Virus record (IMG/VR): IMGVR_UViG_3300027980_000019
DNA from: a virus
Strand: one strand, 5' to 3'
DNA: 38,724 nt
How positions within the stretch are numbered: position 1 is the first letter of the stretch; each line of letters begins with the position of its first letter. This document shows positions 3,436 to 38,724 of this stretch, one piece after another. The translations under genes and the position numbers were made by a program. A model generated the notes under the pieces. The model did not search any database. It was given only the letters and a program-made list of their open reading frames with translations, and had not been told where the DNA came from.

Positions 3436-3461
3436 GGGGCTACCAACACAGGGGATTGAAG

Positions 3462-9125: not shown

Positions 9126-9158
9126 TGTCCTACACAAACAAAACTGATGCGGTATAGT
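9115..9158 (+). promoter_or_regulatory. Class-I promoter-like motif, copy d (TTGGCGC-N3-GTGTCCTAC-N19-TATAGT)
   Basis: Best-matching copy. Overlaps the ninG stop and faces the ORF-poor structured region. Confidence 0.6.
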
Positions 9159-10167: not shown

Positions 10168-10198
10168 TTGACCGTTGTGGCGCGAATTGTCATAATAT
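10168..10198 (+). promoter_or_regulatory. Class-II (late-type) promoter: TTGACC-N17-CATAAT/TAATAT with spacer 13-mer GTGGCGCGAATTG
   Basis: Sigma70-like hexamers read directly. The 13-mer at 10177-10189 is identical to 12168-12180. Confidence 0.6.
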
Positions 10199-10202
10199 CC
10201 AG

Positions 10203-12219: not shown

Positions 12220-12690
12220 ATGGCAGGTAATGACGGAAAGATAACCAAAGAGAACCGGGATCGAATGCCTGGTCGCGGTCGTAGTAATAAGTCTCTGATA
12301 CTTGAGGCTTTGCGCAGGGAGTCGTTTGAGGATCTTACGGAGAACTCAAGCAACGAGGAATCAACCGTTGCTTTCTTTCGGCACATAATCCGACGCGCTC
12401 GCTCTGGTGAGGCTGATAAAGATTCTGGCATGTTGCTTAAGTGGCTGGGTGACAAAGGCTGGGCAAGTCTAAAGCCTGTTATGGGTGCGGTAGAGTTTGA
12501 ATTCGATGCCCATGCCACTGAGTCGGAGCAGGCAAAGCAGATACTCAAGGCGGCCAGCGAGGGCCATATCACTCCTGATGTTGCGCAGATGTTTGTCAAT
12601 ATGATGACGGGCATGCTCAAGATTGAAGAGGTGACAGAGATTAAAGAGCGCCTAGATCGAATAGAGCAGATGATCGAAAACAATGGCTGA
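12220..12690 (+). CDS. terS: Putative terminase small subunit
   Basis: About 156 aa, in the position upstream of terL, with a basic N-terminus. The call is positional. GTG 12211 is an alternative start. Confidence 0.5.
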   Translation: MAGNDGKITKENRDRMPGRGRSNKSLILEALRRESFEDLTENSSNEESTVAFFRHIIRRARSGEADKDSGMLLKWLGDKGWASLKPVMGAVEFEFDAHATESEQAKQILKAASEGHITPDVAQMFVNMMTGMLKIEEVTEIKERLDRIEQMIENNG

Positions 12691-12727
12691 TAATGTCCTA
12701 GCTTGATTTTTGGGCGCTGGATAGAAT
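12683..12727 (+). promoter_or_regulatory. Class-I promoter-like motif, copy g (degenerate: ATGGCTG-N3-ATGTCCTAG-N20-TAGAAT)
   Basis: The downstream half matches well and the upstream half is weak. Confidence 0.35.
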
Positions 12728-12752: not shown

Positions 12753-12947
12753 ATGGTAATACTTTGGCCGATGTACGGTGAGGCAGCAATGGCTGATTCT
12801 ATTACTGTTATTGAATCTTGCGGTTATTTCATAACTCGAATCCGGAGGCGTCCGTTGGATGGTTATGAAAGAATAGAGGTTACGCGAAAGAAGTTTGGAC
12901 GCGTAAAGAGTCTGCCTGATTTCTGTGAGGTTTTACAAGTTGCTTAA
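12753..12947 (+). CDS. Hypothetical 64-aa protein between terS and terL
   Basis: Strong AAGGGGG RBS before the ATG. Overlaps the annotated terL start. Confidence 0.45.
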   Translation: MVILWPMYGEAAMADSITVIESCGYFITRIRRRPLDGYERIEVTRKKFGRVKSLPDFCEVLQVA

Positions 12948-14418
12948 GCGTAGGCTGGATGATCTTGAGCTTAAGGTGTCGGCTATTTCTGGAGATTTAG
13001 GGCTTGGCGACCAATGGAAGGTTGATTGCCGCAATAACTTGATGGCCTTTACTGAGGTTATGTTCAAGGCGAGGAAGGGCGTCGATATGCGCCACAACTG
13101 GCACCAGCAAAAAATGGTTGATGCGCTTCATAAGGTAGTGAACGGTGAAACGTCCAGGCTTATAATCAATATCCCGCCCCGCTCAGGTAAGACAGAGCTG
13201 GCTGTCATTAACTTTATGGCATGGTGTATGGGTAGGTATCCAGACTCTGAGTTTATACATGCCTCATACTCTAAGCGCCTTGCAACTACAAACACATTTA
13301 GCACTAGGGCTGTGGTTGAGCATGAGAAGTTTGCAGAGATATTCGGCCCGCCTAAGCTTCGTAACGACTCAAACGCCAAGGATGAATGGAGGACAATCCA
13401 GGGCGGTATTGTTTACGCAACTGGTGCTGACGGAACCATTACGGGCTACGGCGCTGGAAAGATGCGCGAAGGGTTCGCTGGTGCAATTGTTATTGATGAC
13501 CCGCATAAGGCTGGTGAGGCCAATTCGGATACGATGCGGTCTAATGTTATAGATTGGTTCCAAACGACAATGGAAAGCCGGAAGAACCGGCCTGATACCC
13601 CTATTATTGTGATCATGCAGCGACTCCATGAGAATGACCTGTCCGGCTGGTTGTTGGCTGGCGGTAATGGTGAAGAGTGGGAGCATTTAAACATACCTGC
13701 TGAAGTCGATGGTGAGTCATTCTGGCCGGAGCAATTCCCGATTGAAGACCTAAAGAGAAAGGAACGCTCAAACTCTTATGTTTACGCCGGTCAGTACTTG
13801 CAGCGCCCTGCCCCTATTGGTGGCGGAATATTCAAGGAGGGGTGGTGGAATTATTACGAAATGCTGCCAAAGATTGACTATAGGATAATTACCGCTGATA
13901 CCGCACAGAAGACCAAGGAGCATAACGACTATTCTGTATTTCAGTGCTGGGGCGTTACCGAAAGCGGAGACGCTTACTTGATAGACATGATCAGGGGTAA
14001 ATGGGAGGCTCCAGAGCTGTTAGTGAATGCCCGTGCGTTCTGGGAGAAGCATTTTACAACACCGGGAATGGGTGCGCTCCGGTCAATGAATATTGAGGAC
14101 AAGGTAAGTGGTACTGGCTTGATTCAGACCTTGCAGCGAGAAGGGATAACAATTAAGGCGATTCAAAGGAATACAGACAAGATTACAAGGGCGCTTGACG
14201 TTGCCCCGGCTGTTGAATCTGGAAGGGTTTACCTACCTAAGCGTGCTAGCTATTTGTCAGACTTCATAAGGGAGCATTCTCAGTTCCCTAACTCAGCCCA
14301 TGACGACTGCGTAGACCCTGCCATTGACGCCGTGTATAATTTAGTGGTAAGCCCTCCGTATAAGGCTAAAGAGACGCCGGTAGATGAGGTCTATGTCAAT
14401 CCCGTGAACTATTGGTGA
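12925..14418 (+). CDS. terL: Terminase large subunit
   Basis: Walker A-like PPRSGKTE, Walker B GAIVIDDPHK, coupling motif IMQRLHENDL, C-terminal nuclease acidic motifs (IITADTA, NIEDKVSG, HDDCVDP). The GTG start is uncertain. Confidence 0.9.
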   Translation: MRFYKLLKRRLDDLELKVSAISGDLGLGDQWKVDCRNNLMAFTEVMFKARKGVDMRHNWHQQKMVDALHKVVNGETSRLIINIPPRSGKTELAVINFMAWCMGRYPDSEFIHASYSKRLATTNTFSTRAVVEHEKFAEIFGPPKLRNDSNAKDEWRTIQGGIVYATGADGTITGYGAGKMREGFAGAIVIDDPHKAGEANSDTMRSNVIDWFQTTMESRKNRPDTPIIVIMQRLHENDLSGWLLAGGNGEEWEHLNIPAEVDGESFWPEQFPIEDLKRKERSNSYVYAGQYLQRPAPIGGGIFKEGWWNYYEMLPKIDYRIITADTAQKTKEHNDYSVFQCWGVTESGDAYLIDMIRGKWEAPELLVNARAFWEKHFTTPGMGALRSMNIEDKVSGTGLIQTLQREGITIKAIQRNTDKITRALDVAPAVESGRVYLPKRASYLSDFIREHSQFPNSAHDDCVDPAIDAVYNLVVSPPYKAKETPVDEVYVNPVNYW

Positions 14419-14422: not shown

Positions 14423-16552
14423 ATGAAGCCAGCTCAAGAAGCACTACAAGATTTCCGAAAGTCGTACTCAGCGGAGTATGACCTGCGTCAACAAGTCATA
14501 GCTGATTTGGAGTTCGCGCTCATCCCTGGTATGCAGTGGGCTGGCTCAGACGCTAAACAATGGGCTAACAAACCAAAGCCAGAAAACAACAAGCTCTTCA
14601 AAAACATCATGGCGATTAATGGCCGGTTTCAAGAGGCTGAATTTGGCGCGCGCATCTCAAGCGCAAGTGATGAAGCCACTGATGATGATGCGGAGACGCT
14701 ACAAAAGCTCTGGCGTAATGACTTCAACGGTTCTGACGGCGCCGATGCTCTGAATAAAGCATTTGAAGAGGCAAGCTTTGGTGGATTCGGCGCGTTCAAG
14801 GTAGTTGCTCGTTACGAAGACGAGGAAGACCCGCAAGATGACCAGCAGTACCTATCGTTTGAAATGATCGGCTCCGCTGCATCTAGTGTGTTCTTTAACG
14901 CTGGCGCCCTGCGTCGTGATAAGACGGACGCCGTTCAGGGCTGGCACTTACAGCGTGTTAATCGTGAGAAGACCGAGGAAGAGTACGGCGTTGATTTTAG
15001 TTCGTTTCCCGCTGGCACCATGACTAACGGTGACTTTTCTTGGATCTGTGGTGATGGTGGCCGCGATGTCTATATTGCCCACTACTATGAGCTGGTCAGT
15101 AAAACCATTGTCGAGTACTCAGTTTACGATGCTGAGGGCGGTTCTTTCCTAATCACCAAGGATGGCCGCAAGTACACAGGTCCGGATGGAGAGCGAATCG
15201 ACAAGGCAGACGTTGACCTGATACTGGAGGTGAACGAATACGACGAAAAGCGCCGGAAGGTTAAGTTTGTCGAGTACGCTGTCATGTCAGGAGATGAGTA
15301 TCTGACTAAGCCTGCTAAGTTGCCGTTTAAGAATATCCCGCTGATTCCAATGTACGGCTATCACCATGAAATAAACGGTATCGAGTTCTACTGCGGTGAA
15401 GTATGCCGCCAGCGTGATTCCCAGAGATTCCTGAATATGGGCTTTGGCGCACTGATGGAAATCCTGTCGGAACCGCAAGTGGCTAAACCTGAATACCTGC
15501 CAGAGCAGATGGAGCGACACGGACAGGCACGAGCTGAACAATCAGTAATAAACCGTCCTTTTCTTTTGAGTGACCCTGTACGAGACGAAAACGGAAATAT
15601 CACACACGTTGGCCCCATTGGTCGGTACGAGCCACCAGAGGCGCGTTCTGGTCTTGTGACGAGCCTACAGTTCCTGTCTCAGAACATACAAGAGCAATCG
15701 GCTAACGGTCAGGCAACACTACCGAGCAATTCCAGCGCCTCAGCAATTCAGCAGGTGAATGAACGTACTGATGATGCGTTCTTGCCGTTGATGACCTCTG
15801 CGTCTAGCTCTATTCGCGTTGCATGCCGAACCTGGATACCAGCGGCTCAGCAGCTTTACTTCACCAATCCCCGCAAGCGTCGCGGCATGGAAGAGGACGG
15901 CAGTTACATTCAGGTCGAGACTATGGTTCCTTCTTATGACAATCAGCGCGGTGTCTACGGAATAACCAAAAACACGGCACGCGGACGCTATGATGTGTCA
16001 GTCAGACAAGGGGAGAGCTACAGAACCAAGAAGGATGCAGAGAGAAACGCAGCAATTGAGATATTGCAATACGCTGATTCAGGCACTCCGCTTGGGCAGA
16101 TGGCGCTACTGAGCGCAATCACCAACACCACGGGCGAAGGTATGCAAGACATGCGGACACTGGCACGCATTCAGCAGATTCAGTCACTGGTGCAGCAGTC
16201 GCTACCTTTGCTGATGAATGGCTACCCACCTGAAAAGCTAGGCATCCGCTCTGAAGAAGAGCTGGCCATCATGCAAATCACTATTCAGCAGGTCATGCAG
16301 GCTCAGCAGCAGCAGAACCCACAAGCGCAAGCGATGGCAATGGAAGGGCAGGCCCGTATGCTTGAGGGTCAGGCGGCAATGGTTGATAAGCAGGTTGATA
16401 TGTTCAACGCTGAAACCAAACGCTTTGAGGCCATACAGAAAGCTCAGAAGTCTGGAATGGATGTAAACAAGATGATGACTGAGATCGAAGGTCAGCAAAT
16501 CAAGAACGCCACTGATCTTGCGAAACTTACCACAGGGGCTGCCCTACAATAG
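14423..16552 (+). CDS. Portal protein (P22-like, with a long C-terminal helical barrel)
   Basis: 709 aa immediately after terL. The Q/A/M-rich helical tail (QQVMQAQQQQNPQAQAMAMEGQARMLEGQAAMVDKQ...) is like the P22 portal barrel. Confidence 0.85.
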   Translation: MKPAQEALQDFRKSYSAEYDLRQQVIADLEFALIPGMQWAGSDAKQWANKPKPENNKLFKNIMAINGRFQEAEFGARISSASDEATDDDAETLQKLWRNDFNGSDGADALNKAFEEASFGGFGAFKVVARYEDEEDPQDDQQYLSFEMIGSAASSVFFNAGALRRDKTDAVQGWHLQRVNREKTEEEYGVDFSSFPAGTMTNGDFSWICGDGGRDVYIAHYYELVSKTIVEYSVYDAEGGSFLITKDGRKYTGPDGERIDKADVDLILEVNEYDEKRRKVKFVEYAVMSGDEYLTKPAKLPFKNIPLIPMYGYHHEINGIEFYCGEVCRQRDSQRFLNMGFGALMEILSEPQVAKPEYLPEQMERHGQARAEQSVINRPFLLSDPVRDENGNITHVGPIGRYEPPEARSGLVTSLQFLSQNIQEQSANGQATLPSNSSASAIQQVNERTDDAFLPLMTSASSSIRVACRTWIPAAQQLYFTNPRKRRGMEEDGSYIQVETMVPSYDNQRGVYGITKNTARGRYDVSVRQGESYRTKKDAERNAAIEILQYADSGTPLGQMALLSAITNTTGEGMQDMRTLARIQQIQSLVQQSLPLLMNGYPPEKLGIRSEEELAIMQITIQQVMQAQQQQNPQAQAMAMEGQARMLEGQAAMVDKQVDMFNAETKRFEAIQKAQKSGMDVNKMMTEIEGQQIKNATDLAKLTTGAALQ

Positions 16553-16573
16553 CAAGGGTGAAACCAACCAAAG

Positions 16574-16595
16574 ACCGGCCACGTGCCGGTTTTTT
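16574..16595 (+). terminator. Rho-independent terminator
   Basis: accggc-cacgt-gccggt stem-loop followed by TTTTT. Confidence 0.75.
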
Positions 16596-16611
16596 CGTTT
16601 ATAGGCAAAAG

Positions 16612-16641
16612 TTGCACTTGTCAATGATGTTGGCGTAAAAT
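16612..16641 (+). promoter_or_regulatory. Sigma70-like promoter TTGCAC-N18-TAAAAT
   Basis: Hexamers read directly. Lies between the portal terminator and the scaffold gene. Confidence 0.45.
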
Positions 16642-16700
16642 GTCATAAAGCCCCACGGTGCTTTACCGTGTTTACGTTACCACCTGACGGAGATTATCAA

Positions 16701-27511: not shown

Positions 27512-29406
27512 TGAGAGTGCAGCTACCGAACGGAACGATTATTGAAGGTGTTCCAGAGGGCACCACTAAAGATCAGATAATGCAGAAGGCTATATCTGCC
27601 GGGTTATCTACTGCTGAAGACTTCGGTGTGCAACCCTCAAGCGAGACGCCGGCTAAGGGTAGTCTGACTCCTGAACAGTTTGCCGACATATACGGAGACC
27701 AGCCCGACATTGATGGCCTTATCGCTCCGTCTCAGCCTAAGCCTGAAGCTAGCATTGGCGAAAAGGCGGTAGGTGTTGGCGAAGCCGCATTGACGACCGC
27801 CACGGCTGCTACAGGCGGAACCCTAGGGCAAATGTTTGGGTTTCTTCGTGGTCTCTCTGAGGAAATAAAGTCTGGAGAGTTCGGAACCAATGAAGCTGCC
27901 GACAGAATAGAGAATTTTGCTGCCAAGATGGCGCAGGAATTCACCTACTCCCCGAAAACTGAAACTGGACAAGAATATGTTCAGGCTATCGGCGAGGCTG
28001 GCGAATCCTTGGCGCCGCTGGCCGGTCTTGGTGGTGAGCTGGCCATGATTGGTCAGGTTGCAAAGAAAGCAGCAGCCCCAAAGGCGACAGATGTAGCCAT
28101 AAAGGCATCCGAAGCGGTCAAACCGGTCAAGGATGTTGCCCAGGCTGTATTCCAATATCAAACACCTGCTAAGCGCAAAATAGCGGAGCTTTTAGAGCAA
28201 TATGATTCTGATGTTACTACTGCTAATTATCGTCTTTCAGCGCCCAGTGATCCAGGTTCTCCTAAATCTGGCATTATGCGTGCCTTGGGTGCTGGTAGTG
28301 CAAGGGTTGAGAAAGACCCGGTTTCTATTGAAGCAATAAAGCAAGGGTACGATAAAGGTATCGTATCAATGATTAAGGGTTCCGCCCCTTCTGACAAAAA
28401 CGCAATGCGCCAAATGCTCGATATTTACGAAAAAGGCCAGAGCGATGCTTTGTTTAGAGCTAAAAACAGACCAGCTCAAGTTGTTGGGCAGCGGCTGGTT
28501 GATTCTATATCTGAGATTCGGAAAGCTAACAGGAAGGCGGGCGCCGATATAGACAAGGCGGCAAATGGCCTGAAGGGTAAAGCGGTTGATTCTCAACCTA
28601 TCGGGGTTCGGTTTATAGATGACCTTGAGTCAATGGGTATTAATGTTGACGACAACCTAAAGCTGAACTTTAAAGGTTCTGACATTGAAGGTGTGCCACC
28701 TGCTGAGCGTGTCATTTCTACTGTATTCAATCGAATGACTGGCCCTAAAATACCAGACGCCTACGAGCTACACAGACTGAAACGCTTTATTGATGAGCAA
28801 GTATCATACGGCAAAGCCGGTGAAGGCTTAACTGGTCGCGCTGAGCGAGCATTAAAGACTTTGCGTAGAGATATAGATTCGACGCTAGATAATAAGTTTG
28901 CTGATTATGATTCTGCCAACACTATTTATAGTGACACCATCGGCGTACTTGATGAGGTTCAGACCGTCGCTGGTAAGCGCGTTGATTTATCCGGCCCCAA
29001 CGCAGCCGAGCAGCTAGGTACGTTAATGCGCAGAGTGCTGAGTAACGCGCAATCAAGAGCTTCGGTAATGGATATGGCAATGGCGGTTGATGAGACTGCC
29101 AGGAAATACCCATCAAAACTGATGATTGAAGGTAAGACTAAAGGTCGGCGTCCTGAGATAACGACATTGGTATTGTTCTCTGACGAGCTGGACAGAAGAT
29201 TTAAACCTGTCGCTTCAACTTCGTTTCAAGGGCAAATTGAACAAGTTGCAGACCGGGGTCGAAGTATTGCTCAGTCTCAATCACCAACGATGGCAGTTAT
29301 TGATGAGGCTGTTAGGTTTGGGGCTAGGGGCGTGGACAAAGCCAGAGGCCGAAACGACGAAAAGGCATACCAGATAATGAAAGACTTATTGAGTGAGGAA
29401 CGGTAA
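27511..29406 (+). CDS. Large ejection / internal-virion-type protein
   Basis: 631 aa. Position immediately before the tailspike is comparable to P22 gp16/gp20. Confidence 0.5.
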   Translation: MRVQLPNGTIIEGVPEGTTKDQIMQKAISAGLSTAEDFGVQPSSETPAKGSLTPEQFADIYGDQPDIDGLIAPSQPKPEASIGEKAVGVGEAALTTATAATGGTLGQMFGFLRGLSEEIKSGEFGTNEAADRIENFAAKMAQEFTYSPKTETGQEYVQAIGEAGESLAPLAGLGGELAMIGQVAKKAAAPKATDVAIKASEAVKPVKDVAQAVFQYQTPAKRKIAELLEQYDSDVTTANYRLSAPSDPGSPKSGIMRALGAGSARVEKDPVSIEAIKQGYDKGIVSMIKGSAPSDKNAMRQMLDIYEKGQSDALFRAKNRPAQVVGQRLVDSISEIRKANRKAGADIDKAANGLKGKAVDSQPIGVRFIDDLESMGINVDDNLKLNFKGSDIEGVPPAERVISTVFNRMTGPKIPDAYELHRLKRFIDEQVSYGKAGEGLTGRAERALKTLRRDIDSTLDNKFADYDSANTIYSDTIGVLDEVQTVAGKRVDLSGPNAAEQLGTLMRRVLSNAQSRASVMDMAMAVDETARKYPSKLMIEGKTKGRRPEITTLVLFSDELDRRFKPVASTSFQGQIEQVADRGRSIAQSQSPTMAVIDEAVRFGARGVDKARGRNDEKAYQIMKDLLSEER

Positions 29407-31430
29407 TGGTTGATCTTACTAAGAAAAAGCACGTTAGCGAGTACGCAACAGACAAGCTTGAGGACGGCGATAAAGTTATCGCATACCGCTCAACCAACGC
29501 CGTTGGCGATAAAGTGTTCCGAGGCGACATTGTTGAAGGTACAGCCGCTTCTATCTCTGATGGAACCAGTACCGACTTAAAGATGTATTCTGATAAAGCC
29601 CTAAAAGACTCACTCAATACCGGCGCTATTCCTATCGGTACAGCCGCAGAAATCGAAACAGGCACAGATACAACCGCAAAGCTTTACGCGCCGGATCAGC
29701 TTAATTCGGCTATTGATAGCCTGATTGAAACCGCTGTTCCTGATGGTACAGAGGCTCAGATAATCGCTGGCACGGACACTACAGAGCGCAAGTACACCCC
29801 GGCTGACATTAACGGCGCTGTAAAAGACATTGCTGGTGCTCAGTACACTGGACGCACTGCCATGAAAGCTATCACCGGCCTAGCCGCTGGCGATGTCGTC
29901 TATCTAAGCGAAGGTGGCCGCTCTGGTACGTTTGAATACCTAGTTGGCGACTACAGCGCAGAAGTGGCGGCGGATACGCTAGAGGGCGTTTTCGTTGCGC
30001 TGGATAGTGATTCAGATGGTAGTGAGGGGGTGTTGAAGCGAGTATTCAGTGGTGATATTGATGCCGAGTGGTTTGGTTACTCCGTAGGCACTGCAATATC
30101 GGACGCTGTGAACGCGGCCATAAGTCTTGGTTTCTTTATCGGAAAAAACACTATTAATGTCCCTCAAACGGCGGGAGAATGTTTTGTAGATAAGGACATC
30201 ATATTTAAGCAAGCAACTAAATTAGTATCCACTGGTTTTAGTAAGCTTTTTGTTGCTACTACAGGTGAGGGTGCGGTATGGGTTCGCAATACAGCCGGTG
30301 TCGGGATTGTCATTGATGGAGCGGCTTATGGTGAGCGACTCAGATTTAACTCAATGAACGGAATAAGCTTTAATGGTGGAGGTCTGTCGGGAGACCTGCT
30401 TAAGCTCAAGAAGACGCAAAACTTCCACATGAAGGATGTCCAGTTATTCGGGTCTCTTGGGCGAACCGTGCTTATTCAGGATATGTATGACTCGTGGTTT
30501 GATGACTCTTACTTTCAGACATCAGGCACAGCGGGGAGCGTAGCGTCCTTTGAGATTGATGATAGCGCCGGATCACCGATTTCGCACAATAACAACATTA
30601 GATTTCGAGGCTGCACGTGGGAGGCAAACAACGGTCAGCCGATTTACATCTGGGGGGCCGGAACTGGCGCTGGTAACACTCAGATTACGTTTGACAGTAA
30701 ATGCAAATGTGAAAACGTGAGTGTTAATGACTATCAAATGAAAATTGTTGATGCTGGAGCGATTGACTTTCAAGGGATGTTGATTGTTAGCTCTGGTACA
30801 TCAGGCAGTATCGGCGGGCAGGTGTATATCGAAAACTGTAGAAATATCCGTGGCTCACTCGATGTGGCACACAACTCGGGCGGTGCCACGTTAGTTTCTG
30901 TTGTCAAGTTGAATGGGTATTCACGCTGTGATTTGGAACTATTTCCCGCAGAGGCAAATGTGATTGATGGCCTCAGTGGGGATTACATCTTTGACAACTC
31001 GACAGGATCTTATGATTCAAGAAGCAGCTTCTCTTCTATGTACATGGGGTCTAAGGAATTAATAACGAACAATACAACAATCAATCAATTCCAGCCGGTT
31101 GGGATTGATGTTCCGTCCGCAGCAGGCTTGAGATTGCGGAGGAACGGCGGCACAGACTCTAATACGGCAATACATATTGACGGTGATAGTAATGGAGGTT
31201 TGTACGCTGGCAAAAATTCGTCTGGAGAGTTTGTTGTATCCACCACTAGCGACCTCGACGGATCGGCGATTTTAAAAGTGGAAAGGGACGGTACTATAGT
31301 GTACACAAAAACACCTTCATTGACTGTCGGGTCGGCGGGCGGTGCAGCGGCATTGCCAGCAACCCCAAGTGGCTACCTGACCATCAATGTGAGTGGCACT
31401 GATTTTTTAGTGCCATACTACAACGCATAA
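29406..31430 (+). CDS. Tailspike (beta-helix depolymerase-like) protein 2
   Basis: N-terminus MVDLTKKKHVSEY. Three GT(D/S)T...Y.P..L fibre repeats and a long repetitive region typical of a parallel beta-helix. Confidence 0.75.
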   Translation: MVDLTKKKHVSEYATDKLEDGDKVIAYRSTNAVGDKVFRGDIVEGTAASISDGTSTDLKMYSDKALKDSLNTGAIPIGTAAEIETGTDTTAKLYAPDQLNSAIDSLIETAVPDGTEAQIIAGTDTTERKYTPADINGAVKDIAGAQYTGRTAMKAITGLAAGDVVYLSEGGRSGTFEYLVGDYSAEVAADTLEGVFVALDSDSDGSEGVLKRVFSGDIDAEWFGYSVGTAISDAVNAAISLGFFIGKNTINVPQTAGECFVDKDIIFKQATKLVSTGFSKLFVATTGEGAVWVRNTAGVGIVIDGAAYGERLRFNSMNGISFNGGGLSGDLLKLKKTQNFHMKDVQLFGSLGRTVLIQDMYDSWFDDSYFQTSGTAGSVASFEIDDSAGSPISHNNNIRFRGCTWEANNGQPIYIWGAGTGAGNTQITFDSKCKCENVSVNDYQMKIVDAGAIDFQGMLIVSSGTSGSIGGQVYIENCRNIRGSLDVAHNSGGATLVSVVKLNGYSRCDLELFPAEANVIDGLSGDYIFDNSTGSYDSRSSFSSMYMGSKELITNNTTINQFQPVGIDVPSAAGLRLRRNGGTDSNTAIHIDGDSNGGLYAGKNSSGEFVVSTTSDLDGSAILKVERDGTIVYTKTPSLTVGSAGGAAALPATPSGYLTINVSGTDFLVPYYNA

Positions 31431-31468: not shown

Positions 31469-31900
31469 ATGTACAAATGCAAACACTTTGACATCGAAGA
31501 GCTAGTACCACCCGAGCTGTTCGTCATGCTGCACGAAGATGCGCTTTGGCGTATGTTCAACCCTGACGTATTAAAAGCCGCAGACTGGCTTAGAGAGCGT
31601 TACGGGCCTGCTACAGTGAACGATTGGAAGTGGGGCGGCAACTTCACCCAATCAGGCATTAGAACGACTGACTCAGAGTATTATTCGCCTACGTCTCAGC
31701 ACTCTATCGGCTGTGCTCTTGATATGAAGTTTAAGAATAAAACTGCGCAAGAGATACGCGACGACTTGGCCGAGTACCAGGCGCAGGGCAATGATGTTCC
31801 TTATTTCACGCGAGTAGAGAACAAAGTCAGTTGGCTTCATATTGACACGAAGCCAACCGGCCTTGACCACTTGTATTTCTTCAATCCGAAGCGCGGTTAA
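31469..31900 (+). CDS. Endolysin, peptidase M15 (VanY / L-alanyl-D-glutamate peptidase-like)
   Basis: Zn-ligand pattern SQHSIGCALD ... WLHID. 143 aa. Confidence 0.85.
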   Translation: MYKCKHFDIEELVPPELFVMLHEDALWRMFNPDVLKAADWLRERYGPATVNDWKWGGNFTQSGIRTTDSEYYSPTSQHSIGCALDMKFKNKTAQEIRDDLAEYQAQGNDVPYFTRVENKVSWLHIDTKPTGLDHLYFFNPKRG

Positions 31901-32090
31901 TCTTACGAATCCGGCGGCGCTGAGACTTGCTTTGGCTGGTCAGGTGCCACTGGCTGCAGCAATCGCACTCATACGCTGACAACTTAACCTTCGATGGTCG
32001 TATCTTGCCTGAAGTCGTTATCTTGATATGACTCAGCGCGGTACGCCGGTCAGGGAATGCCATCTTGTTCGGGTGCCTTTCGCAGCTCAT
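31881..32090 (-). CDS. Small zinc-ribbon-like protein
   Basis: AYECDCCSQWHLTS motif and a basic tail. Last gene of the leftward operon, overlapping the endolysin 3' end convergently by 20 nt. Confidence 0.5.
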   Translation of the reverse strand: MSCERHPNKMAFPDRRTALSHIKITTSGKIRPSKVKLSAYECDCCSQWHLTSQSKSQRRRIRKINRASD

Positions 32091-32563
32091 AGCAGCCCCC
32101 GCACTTTTCGCCAGAACCAGGATGTATCGGAGGCGTAGTACGAGTGGCCCCCGCCGCGTACTGCCTTGTACATTAGGTCTGCTTTCCAGTGCGGGACGTC
32201 AGACTTACTCAGCAGGTAGTAGAAAATCACATCATTCAGAACGCGCCGTGAGCGGTTTTCATAGCCCAGGTCATGGAACATGCTTGATACTCTGAATTTA
32301 TGCGCTGTTGGCTTTCCTATGAGCCACTGGAACCGCTTAGGAATGCTTGCGCCGTCCCACTCGTAACCATTACGAAGATGGTATTCAACCTCGTGGCATG
32401 TGACGTTGTTGCCGCGGGTTTCCTCGACGTAGAACTTAACTACCTTGTCCGGGCCGTTATATCTCAGCCCAGCCTTAAACCCGACAATCCACTGCTTAAC
32501 CTGTTTTATCGGGTAGCTCTCGTATACCCGGTACTTACTGCCGTCATGGCCGTTTATAATCAT
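32087..32563 (-). CDS. DUF1353-family protein
   Basis: YEWDGASIPKRFQWLIG...MFHDLGY...SRRVLNDVIFYYLL...LMYKAVRGGG matches the DUF1353 pattern (DGAS.P, HD..Y, R...D). Confidence 0.65.
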   Translation of the reverse strand: MIINGHDGSKYRVYESYPIKQVKQWIVGFKAGLRYNGPDKVVKFYVEETRGNNVTCHEVEYHLRNGYEWDGASIPKRFQWLIGKPTAHKFRVSSMFHDLGYENRSRRVLNDVIFYYLLSKSDVPHWKADLMYKAVRGGGHSYYASDTSWFWRKVRGLL

Positions 32564-32626
32564 TGCATAATCTTCCCTATTGCTTTGGTTGTGACTTCTT
32601 CAGCCGTGATTCGTGTTTTACTTCGC

Positions 32627-33142
32627 TCATTTGATCAACTCCGGGTTTTGGTGAATGTGTTTCCATTTTCGACTGTTACAACTCCGACACATTGGCTGAA
32701 TATTGCTTATGTAGTCTGATCCGCCTTCTGATAATGGCATTATATGGTCTTTGGTTAGTGAAACATCTGATCGGCCGCACCCAACGCAACAATTGCCACA
32801 AAATTCCTTAAGCGCGTTCCACTCTTCTAACGTATGTGATCCTTCTGCTCCTCGTTCTCTTGCATATCGCCTTGCTTTTAAGTGTGCCATCCTTTCTGGG
32901 TTTTTAGCCTTCCATCTTCTATGGGATTCAGTTTGTGACACACCTCCTCGCCACGTATTTTGTTGTGATGGCTCCCATGATTTTCGATTTTCTGCATAAC
33001 AGGCCATTGAGCAAAAATGTCTCTTTTTTCTATCAAAGTGACTTTTTCTTTCACTGTTCAAAGTTCCGCAATTATCACATAGGTATGCAATCACAAACTG
33101 ACCCTTTCGAACCTCAGTTACTGAGCAAATTACTGTTTTCAT
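32627..33142 (-). CDS. HNH endonuclease
   Basis: CVGCGRSDVSLTKDHIMPLSEGGSDYISNIQPMCRSCNSRK. Start moved to the ATG at 33142 (MKTVICS) because the upstream part of the track ORF overlaps YopX. Confidence 0.8.
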   Translation of the reverse strand: MKTVICSVTEVRKGQFVIAYLCDNCGTLNSERKSHFDRKKRHFCSMACYAENRKSWEPSQQNTWRGGVSQTESHRRWKAKNPERMAHLKARRYARERGAEGSHTLEEWNALKEFCGNCCVGCGRSDVSLTKDHIMPLSEGGSDYISNIQPMCRSCNSRKWKHIHQNPELIK

Positions 33143-33530
33143 GAATATTTCCAATAACCTTAAAGTTAACGCAGTATTCAACGAGCCAGCATCCAAAGCA
33201 AATCCCACGCGGTGATATTGTGGCCTCACCCATTGTGCGCATTGCCGTCGGTCTGTTTTCTGCTGATACGACATTGAAGCTCAGAACATCCCCCTCGTAA
33301 ATCTCCGTGCCGTCACAGTCTTTCAGGCCGGTGTATTGACCCACCGTCTCAGGCTTAACATACTGCTTTCTGATTACGTTAAACCAGCCACCATTACCAA
33401 ATGCTGACTCAACTATCCAGGTCTTTGTATGGCAATGCTGCATGTGCTTGATGAATTTATCAGTAACAACTAAAGAGCCGGTTATCATTTCACCCTTTAT
33501 TGTCATACCGCGAAACTTAATGTCTCTCAT
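33114..33530 (-). CDS. YopX-family protein
   Basis: IKFRGM..., VGQYTGLKDCDGTEIYEGDVL and VIGNIHENSNLL are YopX hallmarks. Confidence 0.8.
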   Translation of the reverse strand: MRDIKFRGMTIKGEMITGSLVVTDKFIKHMQHCHTKTWIVESAFGNGGWFNVIRKQYVKPETVGQYTGLKDCDGTEIYEGDVLSFNVVSAENRPTAMRTMGEATISPRGICFGCWLVEYCVNFKVIGNIHENSNLLSN

Positions 33531-33700
33531 CACTCATCTCCTTTAGGTAGCTCTACGCGCTCGCCAATGTAATCAAACCAATCAGCTTTATAGGGAAACT
33601 CGTTGCCAGGCAAGTAATACTCTTGGTCTTTCGGATAGTGCTTCGCAACGTGCCACCCGGTATTGTTACGGACATAAACGTAGTAGGGCATCATATCCAT
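33530..33700 (-). CDS. Unlisted 56-aa protein
   Basis: My own translation: MDMMPYYVYVRNNTGWHVAKHYPKDQEYYLPGNEFPYKADWFDYIGERVELPKGDE. GGAG RBS. TAATG and TGATG overlaps with its neighbours. Confidence 0.5.
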   Translation of the reverse strand: MDMMPYYVYVRNNTGWHVAKHYPKDQEYYLPGNEFPYKADWFDYIGERVELPKGDE

Positions 33701-33801
33701 TAGCACACTCCGTAATTAAGACAATCTTGGTAGGCCAGCTCGCTGGATATAACGAGCACGACAACGAGTAGAACGAACAGCGATAGTTTGTAAGAAGTCA
33801 T
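33700..33801 (-). CDS. Unlisted 33-aa hydrophobic (single-TM or signal-like) peptide
   Basis: My own translation: MTSYKLSLFVLLVVVLVISSELAYQDCLNYGVC. TAATG overlaps at both ends. Confidence 0.45.
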   Translation of the reverse strand: MTSYKLSLFVLLVVVLVISSELAYQDCLNYGVC

Positions 33802-34085
33802 TAGTTTGTCTCCTTAAAAATCCGCACAATCGCGTCGTATAGCGGGCTTTCTTCGTTTTCGCACACACCCTTCAGGTACTTCACTAACGCCCCGTCCATT
33901 GCATCTAGGTCGTCATCTGTGGCGTTGTCGTGAAACACGGCCATAAGCGCCTCTGGGTCGTCGTATAGCATTGCAGACACCGCATGTTCAGCATCTGCCA
34001 GCCGTTGTGCTTCCTTGCGCTCAGCCGCCTCTTCAGCGTCAATTGCGTCAAGTCTGCGTTTTTCTACCATCTCGTCATAGCTCAT
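33801..34085 (-). CDS. Highly acidic 94-aa protein, first gene of the leftward early operon
   Basis: GAGAGGG RBS. D/E-rich throughout (DAIDAEEAAERKEA, DDPEAL, ATDDDLDAMD, ENEESP). Confidence 0.65.
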   Translation of the reverse strand: MSYDEMVEKRRLDAIDAEEAAERKEAQRLADAEHAVSAMLYDDPEALMAVFHDNATDDDLDAMDGALVKYLKGVCENEESPLYDAIVRIFKETN

Positions 34086-34115: not shown

Positions 34116-34159
34116 ACTATACCGCCTCAAAAATAAACTTGTAGGACACAACGCGCCAA
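34116..34159 (-). promoter_or_regulatory. Class-I promoter-like motif, copy e (minus strand: TTGGCGC-N3-GTGTCCTAC-N19-TATAGT)
   Basis: The reverse complement of 34116-34159 matches copy d almost exactly. Drives the leftward operon. Confidence 0.6.
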
Positions 34160-34213
34160 TGTGCTAGATTACTTTCATCCCCTGGCCACCCGGCCACCTG
34201 CTCAAATGAGCGC

Positions 34214-34235
34214 GCCCCTTAGTTGGGGCTTTTTT
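34214..34235 (+). terminator. Plus-strand rho-independent terminator in the divergent control region
   Basis: gcccc-ttagtt-ggggc followed by TTTTTT. Confidence 0.6.
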
Positions 34236-34246
34236 ATGCCTGAAAG

Positions 34247-34291
34247 TTGGCCCATTCTGTCCTACCATATGTCGGGCCTGCTGGCTAATAT
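34247..34291 (+). promoter_or_regulatory. Class-I promoter-like motif, copy f (TTGGCCC-N3-CTGTCCTAC-N20-TAATAT)
   Basis: Aligned with the other copies. Drives the rightward early operon. Confidence 0.5.
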
Positions 34292-34325: not shown

Positions 34326-34655
34326 ATGAGTGATAACAAACCCAAGCGCCACACTTTAAAAGCCACAGAGCTGCGCACAATGAAAGAATGTGAGGGGTTA
34401 GGCGTTCAGGCCATGATGGAGCGGATGCCGTGGATGACCGAGATGCAAATCAGGCAGCACGCAAAGCGTCACGGAGTATCAGTTGTTAATAGGAGCAAGC
34501 CATACGGAGCAAAATACTCTGATGATGAAATAGCGGCTATCTGCGAGCTTAAAAGCACGGGCCTGGCGTGGGCTGAAATAGCTACAGCGTATAACACCAC
34601 TGTTACCAGCATTAAGAGCTGCGTAAAACGACGCTTAAGAAAGGGGGCGGCATGA
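34326..34655 (+). CDS. Putative DNA-binding regulator with a sigma-70 region-4 / LuxR-like HTH
   Basis: ATG 34326 has a GGGAG RBS, and the upstream part of track ORF 34161.. lies over promoter f. C-terminal SDDEIAAICELKSTGLAWAEIATAYNTTVTSIKSCVKRRL. Confidence 0.55.
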   Translation: MSDNKPKRHTLKATELRTMKECEGLGVQAMMERMPWMTEMQIRQHAKRHGVSVVNRSKPYGAKYSDDEIAAICELKSTGLAWAEIATAYNTTVTSIKSCVKRRLRKGAA

Positions 34656-34768
34656 TCACAGGCGGCTTTGGCTACACTTACGACATTGAAAGCGGACTAT
34701 TGCGCCGCTGGTTTATTGACAGAGACGGCGTTAAACGCTGGGTACACAATAAGGAGCAAGTGAAATGA
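34652..34768 (+). CDS. Unlisted 38-aa peptide
   Basis: My own translation: MITGGFGYTYDIESGLLRRWFIDRDGVKRWVHNKEQVK. ATGA overlaps at both ends. Confidence 0.45.
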   Translation: MITGGFGYTYDIESGLLRRWFIDRDGVKRWVHNKEQVK

Positions 34769-34959
34769 AAAAGAAACAAACACTACAAGACGCAGTTTAT
34801 GAAGCGCAACGCTTTATTGAGCGGGCGGAAAAGATTCTTGATGCTAAGGAGGATTACTGGATGCACAACAACGCCGCAGACCGTGGCGCACTTAACCGTC
34901 AGAGCATGGAGCTAACCCGCGCACTGGCTAAATACCGCAAAACGGATGCTTACGAATGA
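34765..34959 (+). CDS. Hypothetical protein
   Basis: 64-aa ORF with an AAGGAG RBS. Confidence 0.55.
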   Translation: MKKKQTLQDAVYEAQRFIERAEKILDAKEDYWMHNNAADRGALNRQSMELTRALAKYRKTDAYE

Positions 34960-35117
34960 AAATCGCAATATACATGGAGGTTTGCTAAACTAGTCACATA
35001 GCAAGGCGTGGAACCCAAGCTATAAGTAAGACCGTGGTGATATTGATATGGGCGAAAGGTAGGGCGAATCACCCGCTCTGTTCCACCCGAGTAGCCCACC
35101 TAATCAATGGTGAATCT

Positions 35118-35765
35118 ATGTTACCTGTAAGCAATCCAGAAAGTCAGACAATGAGCAGTCGCGATATAGCCGCGCTTGTTGAATCCCGTCACTCTGATGT
35201 AATGCGAACTATTGAGCGCCTTATCTCAAACGAAACAATTTCAGGGTATGCGCCAACGGCGTACACCCATGAGCAGAACGGACAACAGTATCACGAGTAC
35301 CTGATAGGCAAGCGCGATAGCTATGTCGTTGTTGCTCAGCTCTCCCCGCAGTTTACCGCCAGACTTGTTGACCGCTGGCAAGAATTGGAAGAGCAGGCAG
35401 CCCCGCAAATACCGCAAACATACTCAGAGGCACTACAACTAGCAGCGGATCAGGCAAAGCTAATCGAAGAGCAGCGGCCAAAGGTTGAGTTTGTCGATAA
35501 GCTCGTGTCACGCGATACGCTAATGAATGCGACACAGGTTGCCCAGAAGCTAGGGTTAAGCGCTGTTAAACTCAACCGTATCCTGGATGAGCTGGGTGGC
35601 GTCTACTCGAAGTCAGTGAAGCGTTCCCGGACGTTCTGCCAGAGCTGGGTAGAAAAGGGTTATGGCGAACTAAAGCAAACGCAGGAAGGCTACCCGCAAG
35701 CCCTGTTCACGCCCGCTGGTGAGGTTCGCATCTTTGAGCTTCTAACCAGTGAAGGTATTATCTAA
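35118..35765 (+). CDS. Rha-family regulatory protein fused to a KilAC/antirepressor C-terminal domain
   Basis: N-terminal SSRDIAALVESRHSDVMRTIERL (Rha pattern). C-terminal ...LMNATQVAQKLGLSAVKLNRILDELG...LFTPAGEVRIFELL (KilAC-like). Confidence 0.75.
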   Translation: MLPVSNPESQTMSSRDIAALVESRHSDVMRTIERLISNETISGYAPTAYTHEQNGQQYHEYLIGKRDSYVVVAQLSPQFTARLVDRWQELEEQAAPQIPQTYSEALQLAADQAKLIEEQRPKVEFVDKLVSRDTLMNATQVAQKLGLSAVKLNRILDELGGVYSKSVKRSRTFCQSWVEKGYGELKQTQEGYPQALFTPAGEVRIFELLTSEGII

Positions 35766-35769
35766 CCCA

Positions 35770-35797
35770 TTGCCCGCCTTCACTGGCGTGGTATAAT
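35770..35797 (+). promoter_or_regulatory. Sigma70 promoter with extended -10 (TTGCCC-N16-TGgTATAAT)
   Basis: Hexamers read directly. The -10 is a perfect TATAAT with an upstream TG. Confidence 0.6.
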
Positions 35798-35895
35798 CAA
35801 TGTGCGGCTAGGATTAGACGGCCATCTAATCTGAAGCCTACGTCTCCGGGCGCGCCGCATACTTCTTCAGGAGACAACAATTAGGAGACATCGCT

Positions 35896-36264
35896 ATGGC
35901 GAAGAAGAAAATCACGCCTAGAAACCGAACCATTGCGTTCATGAAAACCGACTTTTGTTGCTCTTATTGCGGAAGCAAGTTCAAAGATGACTTGTGGGAT
36001 GCATGCCTTGACCATGTTATCCCAGAGTCAAGAGGCGGCTCCAATAAGCATGAAAACCTAATTCCGGCTTGCAGGTCATGCAATGCATCGAAATCAACAA
36101 AGACACTAGACGAATACAGGCTTGTTTGCTGGGCTAGGAATGAGTTTCCTGATGCAAACTTGACGCTGAATCAGATTCAAACCCTTCTAAATCTTGGCGC
36201 CCTTGTGTGTCAGACAGAATATACGTCACACGCTTTCTATTTCGAGGGCAATCAAAATGATTAA
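35896..36264 (+). CDS. HNH endonuclease
   Basis: CSYCGSKF...DHVIPESRGGSNKHENLIPACRSCNASK. Confidence 0.85.
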   Translation: MAKKKITPRNRTIAFMKTDFCCSYCGSKFKDDLWDACLDHVIPESRGGSNKHENLIPACRSCNASKSTKTLDEYRLVCWARNEFPDANLTLNQIQTLLNLGALVCQTEYTSHAFYFEGNQND

Positions 36265-37258
36265 TGAGAAAGAAAAGCCGTATAGCTTCTGGCCATCAGA
36301 GGCAGTTCAGCATGGCATTGAAAAAGCCGTAATTTTATACAACCTACGATTTTGGCTAACAGTAAACAAGGCAGCCGGTAAGGAGAAGCACTACCACGAC
36401 GGCAAATGGTGGACATACAACACTGCAAAGGCTCTTGAGAACCTTATGCCGTTCTTTAATCGACGTTCAATATCAAGATGGCTGTCAGAGCTTGAGAAAG
36501 ATGGAGTCCTGCTTTCTGGGATGTTCAATAAGGTCGCCTATGACCGTACAAAATGGTACACAATACCCGCTGAGTTCAGTGATGACGCCATTGGACAAAA
36601 TGACCAAAGCATTGGACAGGATGACCAATCGAATGGCCAAGATGACCAATGGAATGGACAAAATGGCCAACCTATACCTGATTGTAATCCTGTTTCTAAT
36701 CCTGTTGATAATCTTACCCCGCCTACCGGCTCCGCGTCTGGCGACGCTGTAGGTTGTCAGGATAATTCAGACGAAACCACCAGCACTGATAAACCAGAAA
36801 CGGTTCCTCAGTCTAAAGAGCTGTTCGAGACTCAGACAAAACCAGAGGTCCCGCCTACTGACAAGACTATCAATATTCCGTTTGATGACTGGTGGAGAAT
36901 TTACGGCAAAAAGATTGACCGTAAGAAGTGCGAGCGCAAGTGGAACAAGCTGAGCAACAAAACCCGGCTGGCCATCATGGAACATACACCCAAGTACGTC
37001 CGTGCGACCCCTGACGCTCAATACAGGAAGAACCCATCTACTTACCTTAACTCTGAAACCTGGAACGATGAGCAGCTTCCTACGCCGTCACAAGGTTGGC
37101 CCAATCCGTCCTACCCAACAAACCAGAACCAGACTACAGTTGACGTAGATGCAGCGATGGCACCGAAAGCGGTCAGAAGGCAGGAATCAACGCCGGAGCA
37201 GCTAAAGCGGAACCAGGAGCAGGCTGCTAACCTGTTGAACATTTTTAAAGGGGATTGA
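36257..37258 (+). CDS. Replication initiator / replisome organiser (lambda O-like role) with internal iterons
   Basis: N-terminal winged-helix-like region (NTAKALENLMPFFNRRSISRWLSELEKDGVL), a repeat-encoded linker, and a C-terminal W..Y.KK..R...ERKW..L...YL....W pattern like the conserved phage replication C-terminus. Sits upstream of the helicase on the circular map. Confidence 0.6.
   Translation: MINEKEKPYSFWPSEAVQHGIEKAVILYNLRFWLTVNKAAGKEKHYHDGKWWTYNTAKALENLMPFFNRRSISRWLSELEKDGVLLSGMFNKVAYDRTKWYTIPAEFSDDAIGQNDQSIGQDDQSNGQDDQWNGQNGQPIPDCNPVSNPVDNLTPPTGSASGDAVGCQDNSDETTSTDKPETVPQSKELFETQTKPEVPPTDKTINIPFDDWWRIYGKKIDRKKCERKWNKLSNKTRLAIMEHTPKYVRATPDAQYRKNPSTYLNSETWNDEQLPTPSQGWPNPSYPTNQNQTTVDVDAAMAPKAVRRQESTPEQLKRNQEQAANLLNIFKGD
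36590..36673 (+). repeat. Four tandem 21-bp iteron-like repeats (candidate ori) inside the initiator gene
   Basis: attggacaaaatgaccaaagc / attggacaggatgaccaatcg / aatggccaagatgaccaatgg / aatggacaaaatggccaacct. Each has ATTGG..CCAAT dyad arms. Followed by an AT-rich stretch containing taatcctgtt twice. Confidence 0.65.
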
Positions 37259-38191: not shown

Positions 38192-38520
38192 ATATAGTAG
38201 ACGAATTAAGAGCACAGGCCAATCAGGACCCGCTAGATGCGGATTTGACGATGTTTGATGTTGCTGCTTCTAAGATAGAAGAGCAGCAGGCGCACATTGC
38301 GCGCTTGCGGGAGACTCTATTGAATCTAGAGGAGGCAGCAGAATATGCAGCCGATGCACATGGGCTTGGGGTATACGCCGATTTGTGCGAACAAGCTGGC
38401 GCAGCGTGCCGAGTGCTTGATGAAACCCCGTCGCAGTCGCTGGAGGCGTTAAATTACCGGGTTATGCGCAAACCGTCCTATGGCCAGGGCGGGGAGTGTG
38501 GTTTTATAACCCCAAGCTAA
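38188..38520 (+). CDS. Ea22-like coiled-coil protein (paralogous motif to gene 7304)
   Basis: LDETPSQSLEAL motif, compared with LDETPAQSLEAV in the 7304 gene. Confidence 0.5.
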   Translation: MNIVDELRAQANQDPLDADLTMFDVAASKIEEQQAHIARLRETLLNLEEAAEYAADAHGLGVYADLCEQAGAACRVLDETPSQSLEALNYRVMRKPSYGQGGECGFITPS

Positions 38521-38538: not shown

Positions 38539-38724
38539 ATGATCAATAGCGAAGAACGGAAAGACAAGTCTGAGTTGAGCGCCTTGTTAGCTGTAAATGC
38601 TGATAAAACAGTGGGCGTGATAATTACGCAGTTTATGCTATTTATGCAGCAAGAAGGTATATGGCCTTGTCATCAGTTTATCGGTGACGATCCACAGCCA
38701 TTAACGCCAGATGAAGCAATGAAA
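38539..38724 (+). CDS. 5' part of the junction-spanning small hypothetical ORF (continues at 128-166 on the circular map)
   Basis: ATG 38539 with an AAAGGAA RBS. The frame runs off the window end into the duplicated 127 bp. Confidence 0.5.
   Translation, partial: MINSEERKDKSELSALLAVNADKTVGVIITQFMLFMQQEGIWPCHQFIGDDPQPLTPDEAMK
38598..38724. repeat. Exact copy of 1-127 (end overlap)
   Basis: Identical 127-nt string at both window ends. Confidence 0.95.

Follow-up and report, generated by a model that had tools for sequence, protein, structure and literature searches.

What kind of signal precedes operon after operon in the genome of an uncultured tailed phage, and which protein reads it? The window analyzed here, the whole 38,724-nucleotide (nt) stretch of IMG/VR virus record IMGVR_UViG_3300027980_000019, raises this question most sharply at 34116-34291, where two copies of a bipartite motif stand back to back between divergent operons. 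An initial annotation made from the letters alone had listed seven copies of the motif (a-g), each followed by a -10-like hexamer, and had likened them to promoters at which an activator site replaces the -35 element. The best reading of our data is that these sites would serve as promoters in a small clade of uncultured phages with P22-like virion genes. They are probably factor-dependent promoters of the class II type, used by host RNA polymerase with sigma70, in which the bipartite box takes the place of the -35 hexamer.

Anatomy and placement of the motif sites

All seven copies were recovered at the same coordinates and strands, and two further sites built on the same plan, h (37096-37140) and k (38463-38510), extend the set to nine. 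With up to three mismatches allowed, TTGGCGC-N4-TGTCCTA matched 12 times against 3.2 expected, a count that none of 100 shuffles reached. A 19-nt weight matrix scored the seven sites at 22-32 bits (11.5-30.7 bits leave-one-out), and nine window sites exceeded 12 bits versus a mean of 0.29 in 200 dinucleotide shuffles, an enrichment over the shuffled controls. All nine sites of the extended set lie on the coding strand and so point at the genes downstream, as first described. Seven of the nine are essentially intergenic in a genome that is only 9% intergenic (binomial P about 1e-6), so the motif is not equally frequent in coding DNA; h and k both lie inside the 3' ends of open reading frames (ORFs). 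A literature search for the motif strings returned unrelated primer sequences only.

The anatomy of the sites was pooled from 56 distinct copies in the window and about ten related metagenomic phage contigs, which belong to several diverged lineages and were recovered by motif-based and protein-based searches. The consensus reads T(T/A)GGC(G/C)C-N4-YGTCCTAC, followed after 19-20 nt by TAnnnT and usually by an A 6 nt past the hexamer. Two blocks are invariant in 100% of the copies, GGC at box positions 3-5 and GTCCTA at positions 13-18, and the preferred bases around them are T1, W2, C7, W9, Y12 and C19-C20. The conservation first ascribed to the upstream boxes thus holds for these two cores and not for the whole of TTGGCGC or GTGTCCTAC; nor does TTGGCGC form the left box of every well-formed site, since a and b read TAGGCGC.

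The spacer between box and hexamer measures 19-20 nt in 46 of the 56 copies. At the window sites, a TAnnnT hexamer lies 18-20 nt past the box, except at k, where the distance is 23 nt and the hexamer reads TATAAC. Across the copies, T1 and A2 of the hexamer are kept in 55/56 and T6 in 47/56, a G stands two bases ahead of the hexamer (-14) in 33/56, and an A lies 6 nt past it, at the expected sigma70 start position, in 47/56. The bases between box and -10 are not conserved (at most 0.63 bits beyond position 20).

The sigma70-like -10 hexamer proposed at the outset is present at all nine sites, and the -35 element is indeed lacking: at a distance of 16-18 nt, a TTGACA-like hexamer scores at most 4/6 at any site, a value reached only at d and k, with most sites at 2-3/6. 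Matches to canonical sigma70 promoters were rarer than in shuffles (15 vs 21.4 and 16 vs 23.3). A canonical sigma70 promoter was ruled out by the absence of the -35 hexamer, and the extended -10 class was ruled out for the motif sites by the absence of TGn; the triplets upstream of the -10 at the nine sites read TGG, AGC, CGG, CGG, CGG, GGC, GGA, GAC and TTT.

The numbering of box positions depends on a predicted start, in most cases an A, that lies 6-7 nt past the hexamer. Taking that start as the reference, GTCCTA would occupy about -38 to -33 and GGC about -48 to -46, with the box spanning about -50 to -32, its centre near -41 and the block centres near -35.5 and -47.5. The two invariant blocks are 11-12 bp apart and would therefore lie on the same face of the helix. 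The box has a dyad (TWGG-N10-CCTA) and a direct repeat (TGGC-N6-TGTC), but both are weak, and the asymmetry itself is conserved. Relative to the predicted start, the site overlaps the -35 region, lies near -41.5 and keeps a fixed phase with the -10, as class II activator sites do. The components of the activator- or appropriator-type layout first suggested (a -10, no -35 and a conserved, oriented upstream box) are therefore in place, whereas dependence on a factor is something that we infer from them.

The divergent pair consists of e (34116-34159, minus strand; box TTGGCGCGTTGTGTCCTAC, 19-nt spacer, -10 TATAGT, predicted start A 34109; 30.7 bits), which heads the sole leftward operon (34085 down to 31881), and f (34247-34291, plus strand; box TTGGCCCATTCTGTCCTAC, 20-nt spacer, -10 TAATAT, predicted start A 34298; 27.5 bits), which heads the rightward operon that starts with gene 34326; what had been said of gene order around the pair holds. 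The f box, its -10 and the initial transcribed ATCAACTAAC are kept in aligned relatives, more loosely in L037.

The remaining sites all lie on the plus strand. Promoter a (1556-1599; box TAGGCGCAAAGTGTCCTAG, 19-nt spacer, -10 TAATAT at 1594-1599, predicted start A 1606; 28.1 bits) has orthologues in the contigs L015, L040, L047 and L049, and the TAG in its box doubles as the DnaB stop codon. Promoter b (3392-3435; box TAGGCGCGTTATGTCCTAC, 19-nt spacer, -10 TATAGT, predicted start A 3442; 28.4 bits) heads the ERF-YqaJ-SSB-gp5320-dUTPase operon. Its spacer and -10 lie within the loop of a hairpin in which GCCCC (3417-3421) pairs with GGGGC (3436-3440); all orthologues keep this hairpin, which may act on read-through RNA; L015 has exchanged both bases of a pair (G-C to A-T), and L008 has a G-U pair. 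Promoter c (6221-6263; box TTGGCGCTAAGTGTCCTAC; 28.8 bits), with orthologues in L008, L015, L029, L132 and L292, offers two -10 hexamers, TATAGA after an 18-nt spacer or TAGACT after a 20-nt spacer. The best site is d (9115-9158; box TTGGCGCATAGTGTCCTAC, 19-nt spacer, -10 TATAGT, predicted start A 9165; 31.9 bits), which overlaps the end of the NinG-like gene and forms a 58-bp homology island in L011.

Promoter g (12683-12727; 20-nt spacer, -10 TAGAAT), with its degenerate left box ATGGCTGATAATGTCCTAG, scores 22.5 bits (11.5 leave-one-out). No other motif site precedes the late operon, which runs over 19 kb from terminase to endolysin, and L011 keeps the degenerate form at 8275. Further along this operon, a strong terminator at 16570-16594 follows the portal gene and is itself followed, within 16570-16650, by a half-degenerate box TTGGCGTAAAATGTCATA (12.7 bits) without a -10, which may be a decayed promoter or a factor-binding site. 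Promoter h (box TTGGCCCAATCCGTCCTAC, 20-nt spacer, -10 TACAGT, predicted start 37147; 20.4 bits) falls in the 3'-terminal part of the replication-initiator ORF and precedes the methyltransferase gene (37260) by 120 bp; it is conserved in L008, L039, L040, L044, L047, L049 and L037. The weakest and least certain member is the promoter-like site k, which reads TATGCGCAAACCGTCCTAT here and TAGGCGCAAACCGTCCTAT in relatives and scores 10.5 bits in the window versus 17.2 bits in L039, L040, L044, L047 and L048.

The lineages comprise L040, which is near the window; L039, L044, L047, L048/L132, L049 and L130; L133; L140/L288; and L037/L136. All of them carry the motif, at orthologous and at new positions, and most have the divergent e/f pair. 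Orthologous promoters keep their sub-type, f always having TTGGCC(C/T), a 20-nt spacer and a TAATAT-like hexamer, and g always being degenerate. L140 has a relaxed left block (TTGTCCC, TAGTCGC) with GTCCTA still invariant, which could point to a different reader there. The motif is absent from the distant cultured relatives, namely Vibrio lentus phages, Vibrio phage 1.061.O and Aeromonas phage 4_4512, and about 3.7 Mb of unrelated phage loci outside the clade contained no locus with at least two motif matches. A link between motif and virion module was rejected, as this total includes 1.08 Mb around terminase relatives. The motif thus travels with the early or regulatory part of this clade and not with the virion module.

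Candidate readers of the box

If the sites are factor-dependent sigma70 promoters, a sequence-specific protein would bind both GGC and GTCCTA, stand in for the contact between sigma region 4 and the -35 element, and recruit host sigma70 RNA polymerase. The fixed distance of 19-20 nt from box to -10 would then reflect contact between this protein and the polymerase. The factor would most likely be phage-encoded, and the best candidate is gp34326, the 109-amino-acid (aa) product of the first gene after f (gene 34326; 34326-34655, plus strand).

The e-f intergenic region offers a possible start to such a scheme. Between the two motif promoters lies a putative host-type extended -10 promoter, TGcTAGATT (34162-34170, plus strand), whose function is predicted from its sequence and which does have the TGn of that class. 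In the window, its -35 region, AGGACA, lies 16 nt upstream and is the reverse complement of the e box. The promoter is conserved across three lineages, reading TGCTATATT in L039/L044/L047/L048/L130 and TGCTATGAT in L140, whereas the flanking spacer has diverged. Downstream, 11 nt before the f box, is an intrinsic terminator (34214-34238, plus strand) that consists of GCCCCTTAGTTGGGGC followed by TTTTTT; its stem carries a compensatory C-G to A-T change in L037, and L140 has a hairpin without a U-tract at this position. The near-invariant ATGCCTGAAAG (ATGCCTGCAAG in L044 and L130) comes between terminator and f box. Within 34162-34238, the short (~60-nt) stretch that would be transcribed from the extended -10 promoter contains three hairpins and ends in the terminator upstream of f, and it could be a small RNA, an attenuated leader of the early operon, or both.

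Under the factor-dependent reading, host polymerase alone would make the first transcripts from the extended -10 promoter at 34162-34170, and some of these would read through a leaky terminator at 34214-34238 into gene 34326 and the f operon. Once occupied, the e box would mask the -35 region of the extended -10 promoter, and transcription would pass to the motif promoters. Differences in box quality could set the timing, with c, d and e strong and late promoter g weak, so that the degenerate g would fire last. In its fullest form, this proposal amounts to a hitherto undescribed means of redirecting host RNA polymerase, in which a small protein stands in for sigma region 4 at all promoters of the phage, such that one 19-bp signal runs the whole genome in the absence of a phage polymerase. 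The protein would be either a small, bipartite gp34326-like protein with two helix-turn-helix (HTH) domains, from a family without a described member, or a factor delivered with the DNA or borrowed from the host, and the extended -10 promoter that overlaps the e box would be the switch at the start of infection. We put this forward as a tentative model, with more doubt than conviction.

Gene 34326 had been named as a possible source of the factor, and its product is indeed a predicted DNA-binding protein with tandem HTH domains. The family is tiny: a word-indexed search of 5.8 billion proteins found three clusters at 90% identity, there are two full-length relatives among 1.84 billion representatives, and gp34326 has no Pfam match. 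An AlphaFold2 model based on a 7-sequence alignment (predicted local distance difference test score, pLDDT, 80.8) consists of two three-helix bundles joined by a linker. The top Foldseek matches of this model (SETMAR, Myb R2R3, Tc3, Mos1 and Pax, bipartite HTH proteins on DNA) were non-significant (best E = 0.14), and remote relatives found with hidden Markov models (HMMs) carry HTH_38, HTH_7, Sigma70_r4, Myb and GcrA domains. An asymmetric site made of two blocks 11-12 bp apart would suit a monomer with two HTH domains, as modeled. The motif is present in every contig in which a gp34326 homologue was found, including L133, whose protein is 37% identical, and in relatives also the gene lies within the f-headed operon. 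No homologues were found in bacterial genomes, which thus provide neither prophages nor a clue to the host, and none in INPHARED; a search of PDB sequences gave no meaningful match. In one relative (L049, 692-1486; UViG_3300011126_000128), two gp34326-like units stand in tandem in a single stop-to-stop frame, a duplication or fusion. We regard gp34326 as the best candidate for the box-binding factor, a suggestion that we would nonetheless expect to fail more readily than to succeed.

Several observations weigh against gp34326 and against the scheme built around it. L140/L288 has at least nine motif sites and no gp34326 homologue detectable even by a broadened HMM in 30 of its 39 kb, apparently all of its non-structural DNA, and 15 kb of the L037/L136 contig likewise contained no homologue. 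gp34326 and its homologue in L133 have considerably different recognition helices, whereas the DNA motif is identical, and the fold matches fall short of statistical significance. No phage protein co-occurs perfectly with the motif. Furthermore, f drives the candidate's own gene, a bootstrapping problem that only the putative read-through transcription would solve. The presence of the same motif at every operon, including those presumably transcribed earliest, fits a host factor or one delivered with the virion equally well.

Two other phage proteins were rejected as readers. Gene 7043, also put forward initially, is not conserved: its product has no homologue in relatives that cover the neighborhood, no clear one in most relatives, and is only weakly linked (E = 0.007) to an HTH protein of L140, so that it was set aside as a general factor. 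The second, gp5320 (5320-5487, plus strand; 55 aa), is among the best-conserved early proteins and has a zinc-ribbon-like CxC...CxxC pattern but no Pfam or PHROG family. Its identity is 80-96% in most motif lineages, where other shared early proteins are often only 33-65% identical. As a specificity factor it was rejected because it is also present in the motif-less L289, L290 and L291 and in Pseudomonas phage DDSR119; among the unrelated phages that carry it, it is an unannotated ORF in Pseudomonas phages DDSR119 and Torfinnsbu.

A host factor is a serious alternative to gp34326. GGC/GTCCTA and the -10-like hexamer might be read together by a different holoenzyme, formed with an alternative sigma factor of the host, or by a host transcription factor exploited by all these phages, a reading that we judge unlikely. 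That a single motif is common to all operons, including the presumably first-transcribed e and f, is in keeping with a host reader, as is the lack of any phage-encoded protein common to all motif-bearing lineages in the sampled DNA. Nine positions that are invariant over diverged phages also suggest an unchanging and possibly host-encoded reader, although a reader of the housekeeping type normally tolerates more degeneracy than this. The motif fits no known promoter consensus of sigma54, sigma32, sigmaE, sigma28 or extracytoplasmic function (ECF) sigma factors, and its downstream hexamer is a classic sigma70 -10. Furthermore, a narrow scan of 185,579 bacterial and archaeal GTDB genomes for motif plus -10 returned only chance matches and no enriched taxon; the matches were a conserved Nostoc locus and one coding-looking site in a Cellvibrio metagenome-assembled genome, both read as chance.

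Alternatively, the box may be an operator, at which a phage shut-off protein or repressor jointly represses weak, -35-less sigma70 promoters that consist of a -10 and the G at -14. Like the stoperators of mycobacteriophage L5, the sites lack symmetry, follow the direction of transcription and are mostly intergenic, the box overlaps the place where sigma region 4 is expected, and the phage encodes a Rha/KilAC antirepressor-like gene. Such a function is nevertheless quite improbable: Pfam and PHROG scans turned up neither a repressor or Cro nor an integrase, genome searches gave no prophage relatives, and with neither a -35 nor a full TGn the promoters would on their own be very weak. Strict phasing at 19-20 nt and a centre near -41 are also typical of activation rather than of simple occlusion.

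The motif might also be primarily a recombination linker or module boundary, or a replication or packaging signal, with its promoter look a secondary trait. Of 274 alignment ends in BLAST comparisons between window and relatives, 52 fall within -40 to +90 of a motif start versus 3% expected, 18 of 64 short alignments are isolated promoter islands, and several promoters are islands of identity, 27-133 bp long, between unrelated genes. The conserved promoters thus seem to act as junctions for module exchange. As a primary function, however, this is very improbable, given that it leaves the strand bias, the -10 fixed at 19-20 nt, the conserved A at the start position and the absence of -35 boxes unexplained, and that mosaic exchange is an expected by-product of conserved promoters. 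The promoter-stem-loop cassettes of T4 are an example of such exchange at promoters.

Hardly tenable, finally, are promoters of the sigma54 type or of a phage single-subunit RNA polymerase: although the left box resembles a -24 element (TTGGCAC in some relatives, TGGCGC in the window), and the 19-bp length and TATAG recall T7-type promoters, the site reads GG-N10-CC with an invariant CC rather than GG-N10-GC, Pfam scans found no AAA+ enhancer-binding protein, the conserved hexamer would lie downstream of a sigma54 start, the spacing shifts by 1-2 nt, the window spacer of 18 to 23 nt departs from the contiguous rigid spacing of T7-type promoters, and the longest ORFs encode the portal (709 aa), a tailspike-like protein (674 aa) and other products of the virion module, with no scanned product matching an RNA polymerase family.

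The phage and its early region

The window is a circular assembly whose two ends share an exact 127-bp repeat (1-127 and 38598-38724), the usual signature of a circular contig from assembly at k=127, which gives a genome of ~38,597 bp (~38.6 kb); its guanine-cytosine (GC) content is ~48%. Protein searches identified a tailed phage with a P22-like virion module, which includes the terminase (12925-14418), the portal (14423-16552) and genes for scaffold, coat, adaptor, head-closure and gp7-like ejection proteins; the tailspike-like ORF (29406-31430) was read from its position and translation. The portal is at most 44.5% identical to those of cultured Vibrio lentus phages, and INPHARED contained no close or near-identical cultured relative of the window.

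Outside the virion module, the genome has a lambdoid-style early region with replication and recombination genes (DnaB helicase, replication initiator, ERF recombinase, YqaJ exonuclease, SSB and dUTPase) alongside a DUF1367-family (NinB-like) protein, a NinG-like protein, a methyltransferase, two HNH endonucleases and a Rha/KilAC protein. An M15 endolysin is also encoded. When the non-structural ORFs and most of the virion ORFs were scanned against Pfam or PHROG, none matched an RNA polymerase, a sigma factor, an integrase, CI/Cro, CII, MotA, AsiA, Mor or Ogr, though remote MotA or AsiA analogues could escape detection by such scans. Transcription runs rightward throughout except in the small operon at 31881-34085, where the GC skew also flips. 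No Rfam family reached the gathering score anywhere in the window, and no tRNAs were found in it.

Two parts of the genome also carry promoters of the ordinary sigma70 type. Compared with L040, the window has an insert within 34655-36264 that consists of the Rha/KilAC gene (about 35034-35765) and an HNH endonuclease gene (35896-36264); TTGCCC-16-TGnTATAAT (35770-35797) precedes the HNH gene, and L040 and other relatives have an additional motif promoter, TTGGCACGTCTTGTCCTACC, at about this position. The best sigma70-type promoter of the genome, TTGACC-17-TGtCATAAT (10168-10196), corresponds to TTGATA...TATAAT in relatives. Within 10168-10690 (plus strand), it precedes a stretch of ~490 nt that lacks a credible plus-strand ORF, small minus-strand ORFs also being present, and that is ~80% identical to L011 and L029. 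With a minimum free energy of -176 kcal/mol (z = -3.9), a long hairpin formed by its first ~100 nt and no Rfam match, this stretch is a candidate for a large, structured non-coding RNA served by a host-type promoter of its own.

Comparison with known systems

The comparison with T4 middle promoters drawn in the initial annotation is apt in its general logic: in both systems a sigma70 -10 is kept, a phage-specific box occupies the place of the -35 element and many copies are spread over one genome. It does not extend to the details. The MotA box of T4 is a single 9-bp element (TGCTTtA) centred at -30, whereas the sites described here have no MotA box at -30 but two blocks near -35.5 and -47.5, and no MotA or AsiA homologue was found. 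T4 middle promoters also constitute one temporal class, whereas the present motif is found ahead of early, middle and late operons alike.

The middle and late promoters of Mu, which depend on Mor and C, also have a -10 but no usable -35, as do class II promoters, at which CRP or FNR binds at -41.5. At Mor and class II promoters the activator site abuts or overlaps the -35 region, the Mor site lying at about -51 to -33; here the box would extend from about -50 to -32. Mor and C sites are dyads bound by dimers, however, whereas our sites have only a weak dyad and a conserved asymmetry. The geometry proposed for gp34326 is closer to that of MarA, SoxS and Rob, which bind asymmetric 20-bp sites as monomers with two HTH motifs. 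No protein of the Mor or AraC family was found, and the Foldseek match of gp34326 to Mor (1rr7) was non-significant (E = 0.62).

The boxes of lambda cII (TTGC-N6-TTGC) and PhoB (7-4-7) likewise combine a periodicity of 10-11 bp with the lack of a -35, and TGGC-N6-TGTC can be written as 7-N4-7; as in lambda, the genes around the sites are of the lambdoid early type (DUF1367, NinG, ERF, Rha). In cII and PhoB sites, however, the halves repeat each other, whereas here they differ and the element lies ~10 bp further upstream. Moreover, cII serves three lysogeny promoters, in contrast to the genome-wide use seen here, and no CII homologue was found. Judged by eye, none of the sigma54, cII, PhoB, lux-box, NtcA and CRP consensus sequences fits the motif.

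In their asymmetry, their orientation with transcription and their placement in short intergenic spaces throughout the genome, the sites resemble the stoperators bound by gp71 of phage L5. L5 stoperators are repressive and mostly uncoupled from promoter elements, whereas every copy in the window has a phased -10 and no repressor was found.

The Pseudomonas phages YuA and 14-1 depend on host polymerase and carry about ten copies of conserved, non-sigma70 motifs upstream of mapped transcription starts (PMC10914365). These motifs were inactive in reporters without infection, and a phage or host factor was assumed (PMC10914365). Our window shares with YuA and 14-1 a conserved phage-specific motif and the lack of a phage RNA polymerase, but sequences, hosts and phage types differ, and the starts that were mapped there are predicted here.

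Should the factor-dependent reading prove right, early, middle and late operons would all run from one factor-dependent promoter type without a phage polymerase or sigma factor. This would add a sequence-specific polymerase-redirecting system to the short list of those worked out (MotA/AsiA of T4, Mor/C of Mu and Ogr of P2) and provide an orthogonal promoter-activator pair for synthetic biology. The motif itself marks operon starts in an uncultured phage clade, is a precise 19-bp probe for a factor search, and illustrates how conserved promoters can serve as junctions at which relatives exchange gene modules. Phages dependent on host polymerase were already known to carry conserved promoter motifs of their own, several of them, such as those of YuA and 14-1, without an assigned factor; what is new here is the motif with its two-block arrangement centred near -41, its position ahead of every operon, and the protein proposed to read it.

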